Shown here one piece after another: positions 4,360-19,700 of a DNA stretch of 64,000 nt (within the stretch, counting starts at the first letter, position 1; each line of letters opens with the position of its first letter). The notes beneath the pieces are model-generated. The model was not told the origin of the DNA. It searched no databases and was given only the letters and a program-made list of their open reading frames with translations. The DNA lies in contig ML992502.1 in assembly GCA_010093995.1 (NCBI GenBank), forward strand, positions 1,894,312 through 1,958,311, in the 5' to 3' direction. A program made the translations under genes and the position numbers. Origin of the DNA: Elsinoe ampelina (Eukaryota).

Positions 4360-6108
4360 TTAGTAATGGGTGGCGACGGCGGAGGAGCAGGTGCGCTCGA
4401 TGAGGGCGGCGTGGGCTGGACTGCGGGGGCGGATCTTGACGGCGAAGGGATCGGCGCCTTGGGTGAATTGGGGGATGGTCATGGTGTCGATCGGGTGGGA
4501 CTGAGTCAACATGTTAGATCGGTGTGTGAGATGAGAGTGAGCGTGTTTACTACCTTGTCTTCTTCGAAATCGAAGCAGTATAAGAGACGTGCTGCTGCGA
4601 TCCAGACGTTGCTGTCTCCAACGTGGTAGCCTACGCAAACACGACGGCCTGCATCTTGAGTCAGCCTCGGCAAGTGTCAGATGGTTTAGAAGACTTACCT
4701 GGACCGAAAGCCCAGTGGCCCTTCAGCGGGTTCGCCAGATCCTCGTTCAAGAATCTCTCCGGCCAGAACCTCTCCGGCTCCTTATACTCCCTCTCATCCA
4801 GCGCAATCGCCCATGCATTCCAAGTGAAGACCGTTCCAGCTGGGAACTTGTACCCCTCATACTCATCATCCTTGATGAGCATAGTCGGTGCACCAATCTC
4901 CGCAATATTCGGCCGCCACCTGAATCCCTCCTTCACCACCGCACTGATATACAGCAATCGACTCCTGTCGTCCAAGTCCGGTAGCCGCTCCGCATTGGCG
5001 CCGCACACGGCATCGAGCTCCTTGCGTGCTCGAGCTACCCAGTCTGGAGAAGTACATGCGCCGGCAATGATCTGACAGATCGTGACTTTGGAGGTATCAG
5101 ATCCGGCTTCCATGAGACTGCCGAACGTGAAGAGCTTGGTGACTTCGTCGAGGTCTTTTTCCTTCTCGCACTGCTTGAGGAATTCGACCGCGAAGCAGTC
5201 TTTGGCTTCACCTTTGGCGAGCTTGGCTTCGATCATGTCAACTTCACGCTTGTAGCAGCTGGTATTTCGTCAGCATATATTGCGCTACTATGGTGGAGGA
5301 ATTGTGTACTCTCGTGTTCGTTTGAAGATCTCTTCGCCCCGAGGACGCCACCAATGCAAAAAGGAAGGAAGCTTGTTCAGCACAGGATAGGCGTCGACGA
5401 GGTTTGCACCCGGCTGAGTCTGCATCAGGAAGTCTTCCATCGTCTGAAAGAGTTCGGCTGTGGCGGGGTCACCGAGAATGGACCGTCGACCAAAGATGAC
5501 ACTCATGATGACCGAGTTTGAGAACCTACCACTAGCACTGTACCACTTGTCGGGGTTCTTGAGATAGTCCCACAGTAGCTGTCTGGACTCCAGGTCCTGG
5601 TAGGGTTTGTAGACGTCCGTCTGCCGGATGTTGAGAATGCCGTGCATGATCTTTCGGAGCTTCCTCCATTTGTCATTATACTGCATGCTGACTATGCGAG
5701 CCCCGCCAGAGATGATACCCTGCGCCATTGGCCACTCTGGGCGTGAGCTGTAGATGGCGGACCGCTTCTCCATGAGGTCTTCAACGATGCGGGACGAGTT
5801 GAGGAAGACCCAGGTGTCGGCTCCGAACTTGCAGGTAAACCTGGTAGTATCAGCATGAGGGACTAATGAGTCGGATTGTGTAGTGAATATCACATCTCGC
5901 CGTATTGCTCTGCCAACTTCTTTGCCCATGGTCCTTGTTGCTTGGGAGGGACTTGGAAAGTGTTGCCGAAAAATGGTATGCCAGGTACTCGCGGTGGCAA
6001 CTTGTACTTTGCATTCCACTGTGCGTCCTGAACTACCTTCGCAATCACAGCTATTAATACCAATCCAGCAACAGCTTGCCAGCTGAGGAGCAGCGTCAGC
6101 AAGCCCAT
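4360..6108 (-). CDS. Cytochrome P450 (5 exons)
   Basis: N-terminal TM anchor plus PPRVPGIP; I-helix EAGSDTS; KEGFR (ExxR); PERF; heme motif FGPG|RRVCVG rebuilt across an intron; four GT-AG introns (about 5842-5893, 5219-5309 region, 4650-4698, 4501-4553); stop at 4360. Confidence 0.93.
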
Positions 6109-6674
6109 GATGGTCAGATCTTCTGTCTGATCGGTCAGCAGTTGACAGCGCGAGGGGCTGTGTGTGGGAGTTTGAAAAGTAGAGTAAGACAAAAACCAGC
6201 ACTGGTACAATGTACCTAGTGACCTACAGCTTATGAAGCATCTCACAGCTCATGACACTCCAAGCACGTTTCTCACATTGATGTGGGGATGAAAACAGTG
6301 CCGGCCAGAGGTGCTGCGTACCCCACATCTTGGCATTTCCACTCTTCAGGTCACGTGCCCGACGGCGCGACAAGACTCCCACACTAATCCGAGCTCTTCG
6401 ATTGGCTCCACTCTTGCGCCCACGCCTGAGTTGTCTTAATACATTACCCCTCGTCCGTACTTTGTGCTTCTAATGCGTTGCTTGAAAATATCCATGTGTT
6501 TTCAAAGGCATGCCTGTAACGCTCCAAGGTGGGGTAAGCTTCATACGATGCTTCATGCACTCGAGTAGCAGATATTACCTTGCAAACCTTGTCCCATTCC
6601 TGTGTTAGTCCGCATATCGCATTTCGAGAAAGACCAGTCATTTGTTTGATTTCGAAAGCACACGGAAGACAGTC

Positions 6675-8047
6675 ATGGCCGAGCAGCAGCAGAGTCCTGT
6701 ACCAAGCCCAGATCAGATCAAGGTTGAGCATGCTCAGGTCATCATTGTCGGAGCCGGACCCGTTGGTCTCTTCAGTGCTTTGAAGATGGTCCAAGCCGGC
6801 ATCGACGTGATCATCCTAGAGGCTGAGAAGGGCATTATACAGAGTCCCAGAGCGACCACGTAAGCTCTTAATATTACCAGTCGGACGTTGGAAATTTAAC
6901 ACGTTCAGATACATGCCCATAACCCTCCACGAAATGGAGCAGGTTGGGGTATATGCGGACCTAGAGGCTGCCGGCTTCAAGAACCGTGGTGGTATCACCT
7001 TTCGCGAATCACATGCAAAAGGTGGCGAAGTGCTGGCGCAGCTCAAGATGTCCGTGGTTCCCAAGGGATCCGTCAAGTATGATTTTGCTGGTATCCATCT
7101 CGGACAGCACAGTCTTGCCGAGATTCTCCTACGACACTGTGAGAAGCATACAAACTTTAAAGTCCTGTGGGGGCATCGCTTCGCTGGGGCTCAACAAGAC
7201 GATGATGCTGGTGGTATAACAGTAGCGGCTGTGGGACCTGTCGGAGAGCGCTTCTTCACCGGCGACTACCTTGTAGGAGCTGATGGCGCAGGAAGCGCTG
7301 TGCGCCGATCACTCTGCATTCCTTTCGAAGGCTTCACCTGGCAAGACTTTCGCTTCGTGGCCTGCAACGTCAAGTATGATTTCGAGGGCTTGGCAGGATT
7401 CTCGACTGCGAATATGGTCGTGGATGAAGAGGACTGGGCGGTAATTGCTCGGACTGGTCGTGAGGATGCACCATGGCGGGTAGCTCTTGGGGTGAGGACG
7501 GATGTGCCAGAATCGGAAATTCTGAACCAGCTACCTGGGAAGTTCGAGAGGCTGTTTCCGGGCCCGAGACCTCTCAAGTATGAGATTGTCTCTGCTAATC
7601 CATACTGGGCGCACCAGAGGATAGCGTCCAAATTGAAGGTCGGCAGGATTGTGTTGTGCGGAGACGCCGCACACGTGAGTACTCCCTACACTGCTAGTAG
7701 GTAAAGCTGACAGATTGCAGTCAAACAATCCCATTGGTGGTCTGGGACTGACGACCGGTCTGATGGATGCAGCAGCTCTTGGAAATTGCTTCATTAGGAT
7801 ATACAAGTACAATGAGCCTGCTCAGCATTTGCTCGAGAGGTACGCCGAGGTGCGAAAAGAGGCTTGGGTCAAGTACACCAATCCAGGCTCCATCGATTTC
7901 AAGATGAGGGTACATTCGACGCACCCAGATGCAGTGGCGTCGAGAGAGAAGTTCTTCGGGGCTCTCAACAATGACCCAGATATTCACCTGAAGATGGCCA
8001 CTATGATGAATGAGGTGATACAGGATGAGTTCAGCCTACCAGAATAG
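6675..8047 (+). CDS. FAD-dependent aromatic-ring monooxygenase (FAD_binding_3, PheA/MhpA-like)
   Basis: GAGPVG, GADGAGSAVRR and GDAAH|SNNPIGGLGLTTG motifs; introns 6860-6908 and 7675-7720. Confidence 0.92.
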
Positions 8048-8524
8048 ATTCGTTTCTAATTGGATGCTCGTCTCCAGGCCTGTATGTGACAGAGAGTATC
8101 GAACTCGTTATTTGCTGGTCTCCGGTCATGCAATTGCTCGTTCCTTGCGTAAATGGCTTATCCGAAGATTAGAAATGAAAGAAGTCAGACGAGTGACATG
8201 AATAGCCAGGGTTAGCCAGATCTTCTGTCATACTGCGTAGTGAAGATATGGTCACCCGTACTTGCTGCCTGCTGTGCTGCTCAAACGTCATGCAGTCCAT
8301 CGAAACAGCTTCATGCGATTTCAAAGCTTCTCTCATCACATCTTTCAGTCTCTTCACAACCATTCACATACACTCATTTTGCATCAGCAAGGATCTTCTT
8401 CGCGCTTGCGCTTCTCCTTTCAGTCCCTGTGACAATTCCGTACCTTCAAGGAGATCCACAAGCCGCCAAACTGGGTAAACGACGGCTCTCCGACGAGGCC
8501 GTCGCCAGTCCTGCGAAGAAAGTC

Positions 8525-11500
8525 ATGACCGTGAGTATGCTCTCGCTAGTTGTGAAGCCACGAGCTGACACATCACGCACAGGATAGTAAGATGGACGTC
8601 GACAGTCCTGCTGCTGCCGTCGAGCAGCTCAAAGAAGCAAATGGCGAGATCGACGAATCCTTGTACAGCCGACAGCTTTATGTTCTCGGCCACGAAGCCA
8701 TGAAGCGCATGGGAGCGTCAAACATTCTAGTGGTTGGCCTCAGAGGTTTGGGAGTGGAGATTGCAAAGAACATCGCACTGGCTGGTGTAAAGAGCTTGAC
8801 ACTATTCGACCCAAAGCCGGCGGCTATCTCAGATCTATCCTCACAGTTCTTCCTCCACCCCGAAGACGTTGGAAAGCCGCGAGATCAAGTCACAGTACCT
8901 CGCGTGTCCGAACTTAATCCATACGTTCCCATCAAAGCGCACCCAAGCAAGACCATCACCTCCGATCTGCAATCGCTCAAGGCATATCAAGTAGTGGTTC
9001 TCACGGACACCTCTCTCCAAGATCAGCTTCTCATTTCAGACTACTGTCATGAGAACGGAATCTACGTTGTGATTACGGATACCTTCGGTCTCTTCGGATC
9101 CATCTTCACAGATTTCGGCAAGAACTTCAGTGTGGTTGATCCAACTGGCGAGGAGCCCAAGCACGGTATCGTTGCGGGCATTGATGAGGAGGGACTTGTG
9201 TCGGTACTGGACGAGACGCGCCATGGATTGGAAGATGGGGACTATGTCACATTCACAGAGGTGGAAGGAATGGAAGGAGTCAACGGTGGAGCGCCAAAGA
9301 AGATTACGGTGAAGGGGCCATACACGTTCTCGATCGGTGACGTCTCCAGCTTCGGCGCCTACAAGCGTGGCGGCCTCTACCAACAGGTCAAGATGCCAAA
9401 GTTCATCGACTTCGAACCATTCGCAAAACAGCTCAAGACACCAGAACTCTTGATGTCCGACTTTGCCAAGTTCGACCGTCCGGCGCAGCTCCACATCGGC
9501 ATTCAAGCTCTCCACGCATTTGCCGAATCGCATGGCGGAAAGTTCCCTAGGCCACACAACGACGAAGATGCTGGAGAGGTGTTGAAGCACGCCCAGGGTC
9601 TCGCGGGTGCAGGCGACGATAAGGTGGAGCTGGACGAAAAGCTCATCAAAGAGCTATCATACCAGGCGCAAGGAGATCTTAGCCCCATGGCGGCGTTCTT
9701 TGGTGGTCTAGCCGCACAGGAGGTGCTAAAGGCTGTCTCTGGAAAATTCCACCCGATCAAACAGTGGCTTTACTTCGACTCCCTGGAGTCTCTCCCAACA
9801 ACTTCTAAGCGTTCAGAAGAGCTCTGCAAGCCAACAGGCACCAGATACGACGGACAGATTGCAGTTTTTGGTAAGGAATATCAAGACAAGCTTGCAAATG
9901 TCAAGCAGTTCCTGGTCGGTGCTGGTGCTATTGGTTGCGAGATGCTGAAGAATTGGGCCATGATTGGTCTCGGCACTGGTCCCAATGGTAGCATCACAGT
10001 CACCGATATGGATCAGATCGAGAGGTCAAATCTCAACCGACAATTCTTGTTCAGACCAAAAGACGTGGGTCAGCTGAAGAGTGACACCGCGGCAAGAGCA
10101 GTCCAGGCGATGAACCCTGATCTCAACGGCAAGATCAACGCTTTGAAGGATCGTGTCTCTGCTGACACCGAGCACATCTTCAACGAAAAGTTCTGGGAAG
10201 GCCTGGATGCTGTCACCAACGCGCTCGACAATGTCGATGCGAGGACGTACGTCGACCGTCGTTGTGTATTCTTCCACAAGCCTCTGGTCGACAGCGGTAC
10301 TCTCGGCACCAAGGGCAACACACAAGTTGTCCTTCCACGCCTCACTGAATCCTACTCAAGCTCGCAAGATCCGCCAGAACAATCATTCCCCATGTGCACA
10401 CTCCGCAGCTTCCCCAACAGGATCGAGCATACCATCGCCTGGGCCAAGGACCTCTTCCACACGTACTTTGTTGGCCCTGCTGAGATCGCCAACCAGTACA
10501 TCTCTTCACCCAACTACCTCGGCTCAGCACTCAAGCAATCAGGTAACGAGAAGCAGACTCTCGAGACACTTCGCGATGCATTGGTCACAGAGAAGCCAAA
10601 GAGCTACGAAGACTGCGTCTCCTGGGCGAGGTTCCAATTTGAGAAGCAGTACAACAACGCGATTCAGCAACTGCTATACAACTTTCCCAAGGACTCCAAG
10701 ACGTCCAGTGGTCAGCCATTCTGGTCTGGACCAAAGCGTGCACCTGATCCATTGCGGTTCGACCCCGAGAACCCCACGCATTTCACCTTTGTCCTCTCGG
10801 CCGCAAACCTCCATGCTTTCAACTATGGCATTTCTCCCAAGCAACAAAAGGACAAAGCTGAGGTCGTCAACATGATCAACAATGTCATGGTACCCGAATT
10901 CAAGCCGGATCCTGGCGTCAAGATTCAAGCCAACGACAGCGATCCAGACCCGAACGCAAGCAATGCTGCCGGCGGGGACGACAACGCCGAACTGCAAAAG
11001 ATCGCCGACAGCCTTCCCACGCCCAAGGCTCTTGGTGGTTTCACGCTGACTCCTGTAGAGTTCGAGAAGGATGATGACACGAACTTCCACATCGACTTCA
11101 TCACTGCCGCGTCGAACCTGCGCGCGGAGAACTACAAGATTGCGACTGCTGATCGCCATAAGACCAAGTTCATCGCGGGCAAGATTATTCCTGCCATTGC
11201 CACAACCACAGCTTTGGTCACGGGTCTTGTCGTTCTCGAAATCTTCAAGATCATTGACGGCAAGGATGACATTGAGCAGTACAAGAATGGATTCGTCAAT
11301 CTGGCGCTTCCATTCTTCGGCTTCTCTGAGCCCATCGCCAGCCCCAAGGGCAAGTACCAGGGTCCGAACGGAGAGGTCACCATCGACAAGCTCTGGGACA
11401 GATTTGAGACGGAGAACGTGACGTTGCAGCAATTCCTCAAGGACTTTGAGGCGAAGGGTCTGAGCGTCACCATGATCAGCAGTGGAGTGAGCCTGCTATA

Positions 11501-11739
11501 TGCCAGCTTTTATCCACCTGCGAAGCTGAAAGACAGGTTGCCGTTGAAGTAAGTTTGCATGTTGCTGCGTTCTGCAAAACCACTGCTAACATTTTATCAG
11601 GTTGAGCGAGCTTGTCGAGACCATCAGCAAGAAGCCTATCCCCGAGCACCAGAAGAATGTCATCTTCGAGATCACGGCGGAAGATACGACCGAGGAGGAC
11701 GTCGAAGTGCCCTATGTCATGCTCAAGTTGGACAAGTAG
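8525..11739 (+). CDS. UBA1: Ubiquitin-activating enzyme E1
   Basis: [30 protein letters not shown], catalytic [28 protein letters not shown] micro-exon plus intron 8531-8582; last intron about 11549-11600; stop 11737-11739. Confidence 0.97.
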
Positions 11740-12279: not shown

Positions 12280-13647
12280 ATGGCGTTTTTCACGCGATTT
12301 ACACAATCAGTCTGGCAGTATGTCTCGCCGGCGAAACCAGCACCACACACACGTCGCAAACACACAATTGAGCCCTCCCCTCCGTCTTCCCTCTCCCTTT
12401 TGCAGCAAAGACAGTCCATGTCACCAACTTCTAGAGTGGCAGCCTGGCACGTAACGTCACCCACAACATCTCTCACATCGAAAATTTCACCTACAGAACC
12501 TAGCACTGGAACGTACTTGAAACGCAAACGCACTCCGACACTAGCAGAAGTACAACCTCTAAAGCGAGCCAGAGGACGACCGCCGAAGGTATCGGGCAAG
12601 ACTGCGCCCGTCATCAAGCGTCCACGAGGTCGACCAAGAAAATCAACAGGGCCAAAGAAGCCCACGGCAAAGTCTCCAATGGCCGACTTCGATGTAGACA
12701 TGACTGCGGTCGATGATGAGTCGAGCATGAGATCGGAGATTGTAGTCGGCCGATCTCGTTCACAAAGCCCAGATGGAAAGAATCTAGACGAAACACCTCC
12801 CTCGTGGGATGAACAAGATGCCCTGGACGACACCTGCATGGAGATCGAAAACGCCACACTTGACGCTCCCTCGTCCGTCGGTCGCGGTTCTTCCCCAGCA
12901 ATCACACTGAACGCCATCAACCCTGGATCCCAAGTTACAGTCCAAGACCTCTCCGCATTTCCCATCATGGCACAACCTCTCATCCTCAGCCTCCTCGCTC
13001 GCGGTCAAGAACCAGTTCTAGCCGGCACATGGGAGAACGACTTTCCCTTTCTCCCCGAGACACTCTTCCTCAGATCAACAATCCAACCACCACACATCGG
13101 CAGCGTCTCCGGCTCCAACTTCCGTGCACAAAAATACTTTGAAACCCTCCTCAAACTAGGCGCCCAAGCAAGAGATAAGGCTCTCCTCGGGAAATCACCC
13201 GACAGGACCATCGTCAAGACAGTGCAAAAGTACCTCGCATGGACGTTCAGGGATGCTAACTTGATCGCCGAGGATCAGCTCAAGTGTCCAGCCATCCTGG
13301 TCACTGCTTTTACCAACCAACAAGCCGACCCGGCCATGGCGCAACGGATCCTAGTGGAAAAGTTGTACCACCAGGAGTGCATCTGGCGGCACTGGCTGGG
13401 CAACGACATGCTGTTGCCGTGTCTGTACGGCGTCTTGGTGACCAATAACATGGTGGTCATCACCGTTTACGAGCCCAACGGGTCATTCACGGAAGACAAA
13501 GGTCAGAGCCTGGAGAAGATCGAGGCGGGGCTGCAGTCGCTTGGTGTGTTTGACTTTGGGTCGGAAGGGTTTGATGTGTGGAACGCTCTGGCTATTGCGC
13601 TGCTGGCGGTGCATGTGAGGGATATCATGAGGGGCTACGCTGCTTAG
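12280..13647 (+). CDS. Uncharacterised AT-hook protein with a globular C-terminal domain
   Basis: Single long ORF (ATG 12280); two AT-hooks KRARGRPPK and KRPRGRPRK; acidic linker; C-terminal RGQEPVL..W..DF..LP..LF and FDF....DVWNALAIA. Confidence 0.8.
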   Translation: MAFFTRFTQSVWQYVSPAKPAPHTRRKHTIEPSPPSSLSLLQQRQSMSPTSRVAAWHVTSPTTSLTSKISPTEPSTGTYLKRKRTPTLAEVQPLKRARGRPPKVSGKTAPVIKRPRGRPRKSTGPKKPTAKSPMADFDVDMTAVDDESSMRSEIVVGRSRSQSPDGKNLDETPPSWDEQDALDDTCMEIENATLDAPSSVGRGSSPAITLNAINPGSQVTVQDLSAFPIMAQPLILSLLARGQEPVLAGTWENDFPFLPETLFLRSTIQPPHIGSVSGSNFRAQKYFETLLKLGAQARDKALLGKSPDRTIVKTVQKYLAWTFRDANLIAEDQLKCPAILVTAFTNQQADPAMAQRILVEKLYHQECIWRHWLGNDMLLPCLYGVLVTNNMVVITVYEPNGSFTEDKGQSLEKIEAGLQSLGVFDFGSEGFDVWNALAIALLAVHVRDIMRGYAA

Positions 13648-16718: not shown

Positions 16719-19700
16719 ATGTTCACAGCAGCTCTGGTAGGTACTGCCGGCCATCTGGTCTGCCCTCAGCCAGCTGTGGACCTTTTGAGAGACTGTCCAC
16801 TGGTTGGAAGGTCTTCCACGAGCTTCTTGCTGTTACAAGCTGGCGACCTTCGCGATGTCCTCTACACGATACACAATCAGAGCGGTGACTCTGTCTACGA
16901 GGATCATAACTACCAGTTCGTGGTATCCGAGCAAGATCCGATCCGACTCGGTCAGTATTCCTACCTCCATGGCATCTCACATCTCTGACTGCAATATAGC
17001 TCGTGCGATCTTCATAGTCACTCTGATTATCGACAACGACCTGGCGTGCAGCGCTGCTCGACTCTGGGGTATACAACACCACTTGTTCCTCGATGCCGAA
17101 GATATTGATCTCGTCAAACGTCACGCCCATCGCCTTGTGGAAGCCACAGTCTCGGATTCGTCCTGGTCTGCATCTGCTTATGCCAAGGTCGTCGAATTCA
17201 TCAACGAAGTGTCGCTCGAAACCGTCAGGAAGATCTGGGAGTCTTACTACCAGGAAATTGATATCAGCGCCGAGAAGAATTTCCTCAAAATCATCAGAAA
17301 AACCCACGCTGCTCTCAAGAAGGATGACAGCCCATTCAAGGGCTCCCGGAATGCAGGCGTTCACTGTTTCCTGGCGGAGACTGCGTTCAATCAATGCAAG
17401 CTCCATTTCTGGAAGACTGGTACCTCTGTCAATCACACGGTCAAGCCCAACGCTGAGCAAGGTGGATTCTCAAATCCGCTCTTCCTCTGTCAGACCACGC
17501 TTCCCGATCTGCCACCGCTTCCCGCCACGCTTGACTATCTATCATCCTTCCACTTTGCGGATGCTGTGGACGATGCACTTTCCGTTCTTGAGCAAGTCCG
17601 GGTCATGACTGCATCTGCACAAGCAGAGTATGCGGCATGGTGTACAAGTCTGGCCTCGAAGTGCCATGCTGGTCGAATCACCATCCTTGCAAGCGCTGGC
17701 GAGCCGATTGCTCTTGCGTACGCACTCCAGTTGCAGCTCGACAAGCCGCCAGCCGCACTCAAGGCACTCGTCAACTACCAATTTCCGAATAAACCATCAA
17801 TCAGTGTCAACAATGAAGTCACAAAAGTGGTCGGAAAGGGTTTTGATGTCATCAGTGCTGGATTTCTGATGGATGATGTGGGCATTCTTGCTTTACTCCC
17901 TGCACTCTCGCCCTTGGTGGGACACTCTCCCTCTTCTATACTTTATACCGAGAGTCATCTTCTCGATAGCACAAACTTCACCGACTATCTCGATGTTGTG
18001 CTGAGAGCGGAACTTCCGGCAGTCGCCATGCTTTCTGGACTGTGTCCGGCATCTGCTTTGACTGGTTTCACGACTGAACACTCAATGTGGGACGGCATGG
18101 TCAGGGACAAGTCAGTCTCCACCAGTCGTATTCGCCTCGCCTGGCGACACTTGCGCGAGTACTCAGCTTGCGGATCGGAACTACCACAACGACAATTGCA
18201 AGTGCAACCTGAGGATCTCGCGGAGTTTGTGGCGAAATGGTACCATGCAATCTTCTTCCTCGACCAAGAGGAGAAGGCTGCAGCGAGGAAGGAATACACC
18301 AAGCCGTACTACAAGAGTCATCTCCTCTCCAACAGATTAGCTCATCGCTCTGTGCACTACTCCCATAGTATCGTCATCGGTCTTCTCTGCATGATCCGGT
18401 CTCAGGTTGTCACTGATTGGAACGAATTCTATCGTACGTTTCTGGTAGTTTTGGGCGAAGACAACTTCCGTCAGACGATGCAGGCTCATATGCTGGAACT
18501 GGAAACTCTGGTGAACCTGATCGGCGTTGACACCATCTTCGACCCCGACAGACAAGGTCCCGAACCTTCCCTGTCGTCGTCCTCGGGAGACAGGACTCTG
18601 GCAAAGGAGGTCCGCAGCCTCGACTTATCCGGCGCTGCATCGAAAGAAGAGATCGCCAACGACATCAACAATCACGTCTCGCCTCCGACCTTCTTGGTTG
18701 TACGTTCGACCGATCTGACGGCCTTCCTCAACCAACCCCAAGCGAGGCAGTCTTTGTTCTTCTTCGTGACTGCCGACAGAACCACTCATACTTTCACTGC
18801 CGTCCGCCGATCGAAGGACAAGATTTTCATTGCAGTACCCTCTCAGCTCCTGCGATCTGGCAAGGTGAAGGTTGCTCTGCTTACTACCACGGCCACCTTC
18901 CGAGAATTGACCGACGACTCTGTCAAACCCTCTCTGAAATCGATGTATACCGGTGAGTTGGTGGACGGTGTGTCGAAGGATTCCTCACTCGCACTGATGG
19001 ATCATCACCCGTCAGGAACGTGGGGCACAGATGGTCCACAGACGCCGGAGATGTTCAAAAGCACAGAGGGTCCTGGCACTGAGCAGCCTGCGATCGCAAT
19101 GGACGGATCAACAGTCTCAGTCCGCTTCGACGGCCGTGGTATACAAGATGTCTGTGTGACCATCCGGGCTGGTAGTATCGTGGCAGATCCTGCCACCCTC
19201 GGTCAAGGACCAGCCCCAGTATACGAAAGGCTCTCGCCGTACCTTCTCCGGATCAGCTACAGCGGTCTTTCGACGATTGCGCATTTCCCATACCCTCTCG
19301 GCAAGCTGGACTGCTCTGCTACCAAGGATGAGTCTGGCTCTCTGATGGTCCGCGTCAAAGGATGTCCAGTCTTAGTCTACGACTCCAAGACTTTTACGAA
19401 GAGGCCATTCCCGGTCATTTGTTCTGGATCGGACGTTCTTGGCCTCTCTCTCGGTTCCGTCAATGTCGCTTTGGCACCCAGAGTCAATGTCTTATCGGTA
19501 AGAGACAAGGCGTTGATGTACCTCAGCAGCATGGCATCGGTGACCGGCAGTGCTGTAGGTGCCTCTCCAGTGCCTATGCCCGATTTCATGTTTCACGGTG
19601 GTCTATTCCTTGAAGCACTCATCTGTCGCACCCACTTCAACAGCAATGCTACGGGACAGGATAGCTGGCTATGCTTCCAATTAGCTCATGTCGATACGAA

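Follow-up and report, generated by a model that had tools for sequence, protein, structure and literature searches.

Does a single UBA1 mRNA of the fungus Elsinoe ampelina supply both a nuclear and a cytosolic form of this ubiquitin E1 enzyme? The question is raised by a CTG codon (8471-8473, GCCGCCAAA-CTG-G) that lies in frame with, and 54 nt (18 codons) above, the first ATG of the gene at 8525, in a stretch of 64,000 nucleotides (nt) that we call the window (assembly GCA_010093995.1, contig ML992502.1, positions 1,894,312 to 1,958,311). An earlier note, made from the sequence alone, had pointed to this CTG and its strong context, to a frame that is open and free of Met from there back to the stop at 8213-8215, and to leaky non-AUG initiation as a way of dividing UBA1 between nucleus and cytosol. 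The first two claims are confirmed from the sequence, and the interpretation is supported by what follows: we regard translation from the CUG as very probable, and the model as a whole, with a CUG-started nuclear form beside an AUG-started cytosolic form, as likely on balance. The context alone does not carry this argument. GNCAARCTGG matches twice in the window, with 1.36 matches expected, so that the rarity of the context had to be rejected as evidence for a start; the CTG is raised above chance because it is conserved among relatives. The other match lies at 19300-19309, where the local sequence gives no sign of a start.

Conservation of the codon, its context and its frame

The codon lies within the spliced mRNA. 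Contigs of four sequencing runs from four studies were placed on 7600-9400, and the runs, although not recorded as RNA, were taken as transcripts because their contigs show spliced joints. In all four runs the contigs, which start at 8327, 8347, 8363 and 8395, cross the CTG unbroken and skip intron 1 (8531-8582, 52 nt, GT..AG) by the joint 8530-8583; apart from this joint they show no other in the UBA1 transcript. The leader therefore extends at least over 8327-8470 on the + strand, and a scan of 8327-8524 found no ATG in any frame. The only in-frame near-cognate codons with A at -3 in that interval are the CTG (GCCAAA-CTG-G, 8465-8474) and an ATT at 8435. Hence the CTG is in frame, with no stop between it and the ATG, inside the mature mRNA and with no AUG above it. 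The earlier note had named transcription from below 8471, or a spliced-in exon with an upstream ATG, as what would count against a CUG start; the contigs of all four runs include 8471, and no such exon appears in them, with the limit that rare isoforms may drop out. Contigs of this kind report the presence of sequence, and true RNA starts, isoform proportions and rare isoforms lie outside their reach.

The relatives used for comparison derive from a metagenome scan with 470 confirmed UBA1 stretches, of which the best 80 were kept. Setting aside 12 without an N-terminal anchor, seven with less than 200 nt upstream, one (L048) cut inside intron 1 and six near-identical duplicates, and separating five loci of a yeast-like clade, left 49, which with the window make 50 Pezizomycotina loci: 22 Dothideomycetes, two beside Chrysothrix, three Eurotiomycetes, six Leotiomycetes, eight Sordariomycetes, a separate clade of four, a deep-branching clade of three and two unplaced. 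Sordariales relatives (L037, L045, L051, L054) are among the loci. Classes were placed from trees with named proteins, from which 21 partial or duplicate rows had been removed; support was 96-100 for Eurotiomycetes, Leotiomycetes and Sordariomycetes, and 46 for the clade of four. The first-exon ATGs were set by hand from splice geometry, after the motif had been noticed.

A start-capable codon is present in 49 of the 50 loci, the window among them; one to three codons after it comes a K-R-[KR] cluster, part of an extension with the peptide KR[KR]..KK-x-M. The codon is CTG in 41 of these 49 loci, TTG in three, ATG in two, and ACG, GTG and ATA in one each, so that all eight departures from CTG are other start-capable codons, even though the amino acid is altered in five of the eight. 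Its context is kept as well (G at -6 in 43 loci, A at -3 in 45, A at -2 in 43, G at +4 in 42), as is its distance of 17-35 codons from the ATG (17-21 in 47 of 49). The exceptions to this conservation of codon and context, namely locus L060 and the protein models P0215, P0141 and P0145, are weighed below. Of the 44 loci in which the codon specifies Leu, 41 use CTG, compared with 25% CTG among the Leu codons of the gene bodies and with 6/44 and 12/44 CTG in two invariant Leu columns; the Gly, Lys and Arg codons that come next vary synonymously, using four, two and six different codons, respectively. Both sequenced cases of ATG at the start place, in the Cladosporium-like loci L017 and L020, have C at -3 (CAC-ATG), a weak context in which initiation would stay leaky.

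The sequence below the codon evolves as coding sequence. Within 60 nt above the ATG, in-frame stops occur in none of the 50 loci, whereas the other two frames have 29 and 11; CTG with a purine at -3 occurs 52, 5 and 21 times by frame in the 150 nt above the ATG. Proteins of different classes share an amino-acid identity of 0.04-0.13 above codon -2, compared with 0.58-0.82 over codons 0-3, and seven loci have in-frame stops at a distance of only 4-12 codons above the start codon. When 14 sister pairs are compared, the extension shows 21, 19 and 48 differences at codon positions 1, 2 and 3, with 36 synonymous and 31 non-synonymous codon changes; the 51 nt above it give 97, 101 and 108 differences, with 17 synonymous and 139 non-synonymous changes, in an ungapped comparison that indels inflate. 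The coding signature is thus confined to the sequence below the start codon. The comparison across Pezizomycotina that the earlier note had asked for therefore finds near-cognate codon, basic peptide and coding signature all present.

Most database models lack the extension, as had been anticipated for standard annotation: of 240 UBA1 proteins, 212 are without the motif (the Neurospora crassa model among them), 19 hold the peptide inside a longer N-terminus and nine place a Met immediately ahead of the basic cluster, with Cladosporium, Zymoseptoria and Zasmidium represented among the nine. When the extension alone served as query, a protein search recovered only four proteins among 147 candidates. 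Among the models with Met at the start place (P0013, P0030, P0067 and P0085, beside the Cladosporium-like loci), those of Zymoseptoria type have Thr before the Met, which places A at -3, so that the long form may dominate in that lineage. Other oddities of the database models are of a different kind: several of the Aspergillus-group models (P0216, P0223, P0226, P0227, P0234, P0236, P0238, P0249, P0255) are 1390-1470 residues long with glutathione S-transferase domains, and P0154 and P0180 carry PF00254; these oversized Aspergillus-group and PF00254 models were probably fused with a neighbouring gene in prediction.

The in-frame peptide is absent from the five yeast-like loci and from two basidiomycete-like transcripts whose leader could be read, both labels being read from a tree without named members for these groups. 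Judged by these comparisons, the extension is a real and deeply conserved feature in Dothideomycetes, Eurotiomycetes, Leotiomycetes, Sordariomycetes and three further groups. By every testable criterion except the optional hairpin, its sequence places it among non-AUG N-terminal extensions. A conserved stimulatory hairpin below the CTG was considered and rejected: the window hairpin at 8480-8503 is not significant (z of -1.37), and against synonymous shuffles the mean z over 49 loci is 0.01.

The gene itself is UBA1 and the sole close E1 match in the genome. It is complete on the + strand, a Pfam search matched all five E1 domains (ThiF twice, FCCH, 4HB, SCCH and UFD), and comparison with PDB chains gave about 1300 bits for Uba1 and about 780 for UBA6, nearer to Uba1 than to other E1s. 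The first 200 residues of exon 2 are 90% identical to Myriangium UBA1, with which the protein groups in trees, and the gene is the best of seven E1-like matches in the genome, the remainder being 24-38% identical. Its exon 1 coding part in the annotated short form is only ATG ACC (8525-8530); exon 2 (8583-11548) holds the E1 body, and a second intron (11549-11600) and a last exon running to the stop at 11739 are predicted from the sequence.

The extension as a candidate nuclear signal

We propose that one UBA1 mRNA would give two, possibly three, N-terminal forms through leaky scanning. Scanning ribosomes would meet first a weak AUU, then the CUG, which is in a strong context and still leaky, and then the AUG. 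A minority would start at the CUG (8471) and make an E1 longer by 18 residues, whose KRR-x10-KK would act as a bipartite-like classical nuclear localisation signal (NLS) and direct nuclear import; the others would go on to the AUG at 8525 and make a form without a recognisable NLS, which would be mainly cytosolic. The weaker AUU, 36 nt higher, could feed the extension frame too. We infer initiation at the CUG, binding to importin-alpha, localisation and the isoform ratio from the sequence, its inclusion in spliced mRNA, and the conservation of codon, context, frame and peptide, all of which are observed directly.

The 18 codons of the extension (8471-8524) encode (M)GKRRLSDEAVASPAKKV. Its first basic cluster, K-R-R-x-S (8477-8491), is a candidate importin-alpha minor-site element with a conserved Ser two places past the cluster: cross-class identity is 0.76 for K, 0.81 for R and 0.60 for Ser, with synonymous variation of the codons, and basic-x-Ser is found in 41 of 49 loci. 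The second, in S-P-A-K-K (8507-8521), is conserved too (K at -3 from the Met in 39 of 49 loci, K or R at -2 in 41). The two clusters lie some 10-12 residues apart across a freely varying linker, and KR-x9-13-[KR][KR], a loose bipartite pattern defined for this analysis, is matched by 44 of the 49 loci, the window among them. A motif scan of the short form found no NLS pattern in the residues encoded by exon 2 and the last exon. The extension is likely to be a classical NLS, and if it is translated we hold that role to be quite probable. Of the earlier description of the peptide as NLS-like with a cyclin-dependent kinase (CDK) site of SPxK type, the bipartite layout stands in this loose form. 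The kinase site does not stand as a general feature: [ST]P.[KR] occurs in only nine of 49 loci, eight of them Dothideomycetes.

Several observations weigh against the two-form model. The window peptide fits none of the six Kosugi classes, as given in PMC8769072 and PMC9699179. Bipartite class VI (KR-x10-12-K[KR][KR] or K[KR]x[KR]) is not matched by a peptide ending in KK-V-M and is matched in five of 49 loci; the monopartite classes I, II, IV and V are all absent from the window, where LGKRRL departs from class V at its final position, and among the 49 loci class V occurs in two and class I in one. Locus L060 has basic clusters in frame (200-322) with no adjacent start codon, the Aspergillus affinis protein model P0215 has Pro at the place of the start codon, the models P0141 and P0145 have Gln-Ala there, and in L050 an ATG lies in frame, 27 nt above the CTG. 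The contigs are also compatible with shorter transcripts whose start is below 8471. The frame counts are not fully blind, given the hand-set ATGs and seven hand-corrected start picks, and related loci are not independent, although CTG still holds 31 of 36 places after dereplication at 90% protein identity and 26 of 30 at 85%. In L060 the basic clusters sit 26 residues further from the ATG, and ACC-ATT and CTG codons occur higher in frame.

The strict NLS classes left unmet in the window leave some room for a CUG-translated extension that is not an import signal, and that would instead be a phospho-regulated tail, a degron or a binding site built on KR[KR]-x-S, with its Ser at codon 6 conserved much as the basic residues are. 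However, clusters held at a near-fixed spacing of 10-12 residues around a variable linker have the layout of a bipartite NLS, the short form offers no other NLS pattern, and the mammalian UBA1 extension holds an NLS and phospho-serines together (PMC4596250), so that a role of this kind in place of nuclear import seems to us rather improbable.

Alternative starts and the upstream ATT

Slightly less probable again, in our judgement, is a CUG-started form that is real and nuclear while most of the short form comes from transcripts that begin below the CUG, or while the long form is the main product. Contigs cannot reveal RNA starts or their proportions, alternative transcript starts supplement codon choice in some Cryptococcus synthetases (PMC7049704), and the Zymoseptoria-type AUG, with A at -3, may not be leaky. 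Yet the start of each of the four contigs is well above 8471, and 48 of 50 loci retain a purine at -3 of the downstream ATG. Leaky scanning, for its part, predicts just such selection for near-cognate codons and the weak context that the two sequenced ATG cases have.

Leaky scanning from a CUG may have a companion in the ATT at 8435-8437 (8432-8438 with its A at -3), a second conserved in-frame near-cognate codon that the earlier note overlooked, and which would add 12 further residues if used. Fourteen of 49 loci (nine of 30 after dereplication at 85%) have such an ATT, its -3 position a purine, at a distance of exactly 36 nt above the start codon: the window, two of three Eurotiomycetes, all six Leotiomycetes, the clade of four and L046, and none of the eight Sordariomycete loci examined. 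The Ile codon at this place is ATT in all 14, although ATT makes up 35% of the Ile codons in gene bodies, while the 11 codons between it and the start codon vary freely; further loci have an ATT at other multiples of three above the start. More broadly, any ATH (H, not G) with A at -3, 9-45 nt above the start, is in frame in 24 of 49 loci, compared with four and six in the other frames. Differences between the ATT and the start codon fall 16, 11 and 24 by codon position, a modest coding bias. These counts suggest that the ATT would be a second, weaker start into the extension frame.

What such a codon might do is more tentative. In L061 the lower codon is ATA in weak context and the ATT is retained in a strong one; the A. 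affinis model has Pro for Leu and retains T-I-P at the distance of the ATT. The AUU may rescue lineages whose CUG is weakened (L061, P0215). Thirty-six nt is close to the footprint of one ribosome, and the fixed gap between AUU and CUG may let a ribosome paused at the CUG queue the next one on the AUU. It is conceivable, if we think it rather doubtful, that AUU, CUG and AUG (separated by 36 nt and then about 54 nt) form a three-step ladder in filamentous ascomycetes that sets the nuclear share of the cell's main E1 by how stringently start codons are chosen, tunable by stress or by eIF1/eIF5 levels.

The same ATT can also be read as the true start, or an upstream AUG exon can be supposed, with the CTG an internal Leu, part of an LGKR[KR] that comes close to Kosugi class V and is found in 32 of 49 loci, within a longer extension. 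Beyond the ATT at -36 in 14 loci, this reading draws on the 19 database models in which the peptide is internal, and on a YAG 9 nt above the CTG in L012 and L050, a possible leader-intron end. It is hard to reconcile with a Leu that is nearly always CTG and is replaced only by other start-capable codons, with Kozak-like conservation at -6, -3 and -2, with stops close above the codon in several loci, with the lack of an upstream joint in four runs and with spliced contigs of L013, L023, L052 and L060 that have no upstream ATG at all, and we consider it very improbable. That the CTG and its surroundings are chance, untranslated leader sequence agrees only with the chance-level context in the window and is largely refuted by at least four named classes in which codon, frame, length and peptide are conserved and changes show a synonymous bias, so that we give it almost no credence.

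The YAG itself, within 1420-1432 in L012 and 1200-1241 in L050, may mark where an intron of the 5' leader stops in both loci. A conserved 3' splice site above the CTG was rejected as a general feature: YAG positions are scattered, and the commonest (5 nt above, 10 loci) is the context itself.

Around UBA1, the window holds upstream neighbours at 4661-8047 arranged head to head, a cytochrome P450 gene on the - strand and a gene for a flavin adenine dinucleotide (FAD)-binding monooxygenase on the + strand (6676-8047), the latter with an intron at 7675-7720 supported by read contigs; the pair is possibly part of a small metabolic cluster. Contigs of the monooxygenase transcript stop at 8124-8147, about 180 nt above those of UBA1. 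Downstream, a gene at 12280-13647 encodes 455 residues without a Pfam match and with RGRP-type repeats, which we take to be AT-hook-like.

Known systems and what two forms of UBA1 would mean

The earlier note gave the NLS of mammalian UBA1 as KKRR. As it also set out, alternative initiation in mammals yields UBA1a, which starts at Met1 and is nuclear, and UBA1b, which starts at Met41 and is cytoplasmic (PMC11099125); the NLS and phospho-serines lie within the first 11 residues (PMC4596250). The parallel is that of the same enzyme, one mRNA with two starts and a longer form with a basic NLS and serines, the fungal NLS being a candidate only. In contrast, the mammalian starts are two AUGs some 40 codons apart, whereas the fungal upper start is usually a CUG, generally the most efficient near-cognate start (PMC5666671), and the extension has about 18 residues, two basic clusters and possibly an AUU. 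Its absence from the yeast-like and basidiomycete-like loci suggests separate origins of the mammalian and fungal extensions, or losses.

Several fungal genes use a related arrangement. PGD of Ustilago maydis (PMC7214817) likewise hides a targeting signal for a housekeeping enzyme in its annotated 5' untranslated region, behind a near-cognate start (AGG AUU), and has dual localisation; its signal is a type 2 peroxisomal targeting signal (PTS2), demonstrated by experiment, whereas that of UBA1 is NLS-like and read from sequence. Dual-start aminoacyl-tRNA synthetases of Cryptococcus, Neurospora and yeasts (PMC7049704) also add a targeting peptide from a leaky upper start and exchange weak AUGs for near-cognates between lineages, much as UBA1 has CAC-ATG in some loci and AAA-CTG in others, but their targeting is mitochondrial. 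The same paper reports no enrichment of predicted dual localisation to nucleus and cytoplasm, and its main text mentions neither UBA1 nor ubiquitin. cpc-1 of Pezizomycotina (PMC5487733) resembles UBA1 in having several conserved in-frame near-cognates (CUG, AUU, ACG) in good context that are absent in yeasts; unlike UBA1, it encodes a transcription factor whose long extension bypasses an upstream open reading frame, with no targeting signal proposed in it in the text available. In PMC13327516 UBA1 appears only as a reagent.

A literature search found, among the papers listed, none on a non-AUG form of fungal UBA1, although supplementary or ribosome-profiling tables may already list the gene. 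The search did not extend to the text of Wei et al. 2013 (J Biol Chem); that paper reportedly lists conserved near-cognate extensions in Neurospora. The class of mechanism appears to be known, and UBA1 as its gene, with this arrangement of CUG and AUU, appears to be undescribed.

If the model is true, the N-terminus of a central and usually single-copy enzyme would be incompletely annotated throughout a fungal subphylum, and UBA1 tagged or cloned from the AUG only would lack its nuclear form. A case of nucleus and cytosol would join the fungal dual-start genes, those compared here being mitochondrial or peroxisomal. Fungi would have reached the mammalian split into UBA1a and UBA1b, an imbalance of which causes VEXAS syndrome (PMC11099125), by way of another start codon, and a model mould would offer a one-nucleotide handle with which nuclear and cytosolic ubiquitin activation could be separated.

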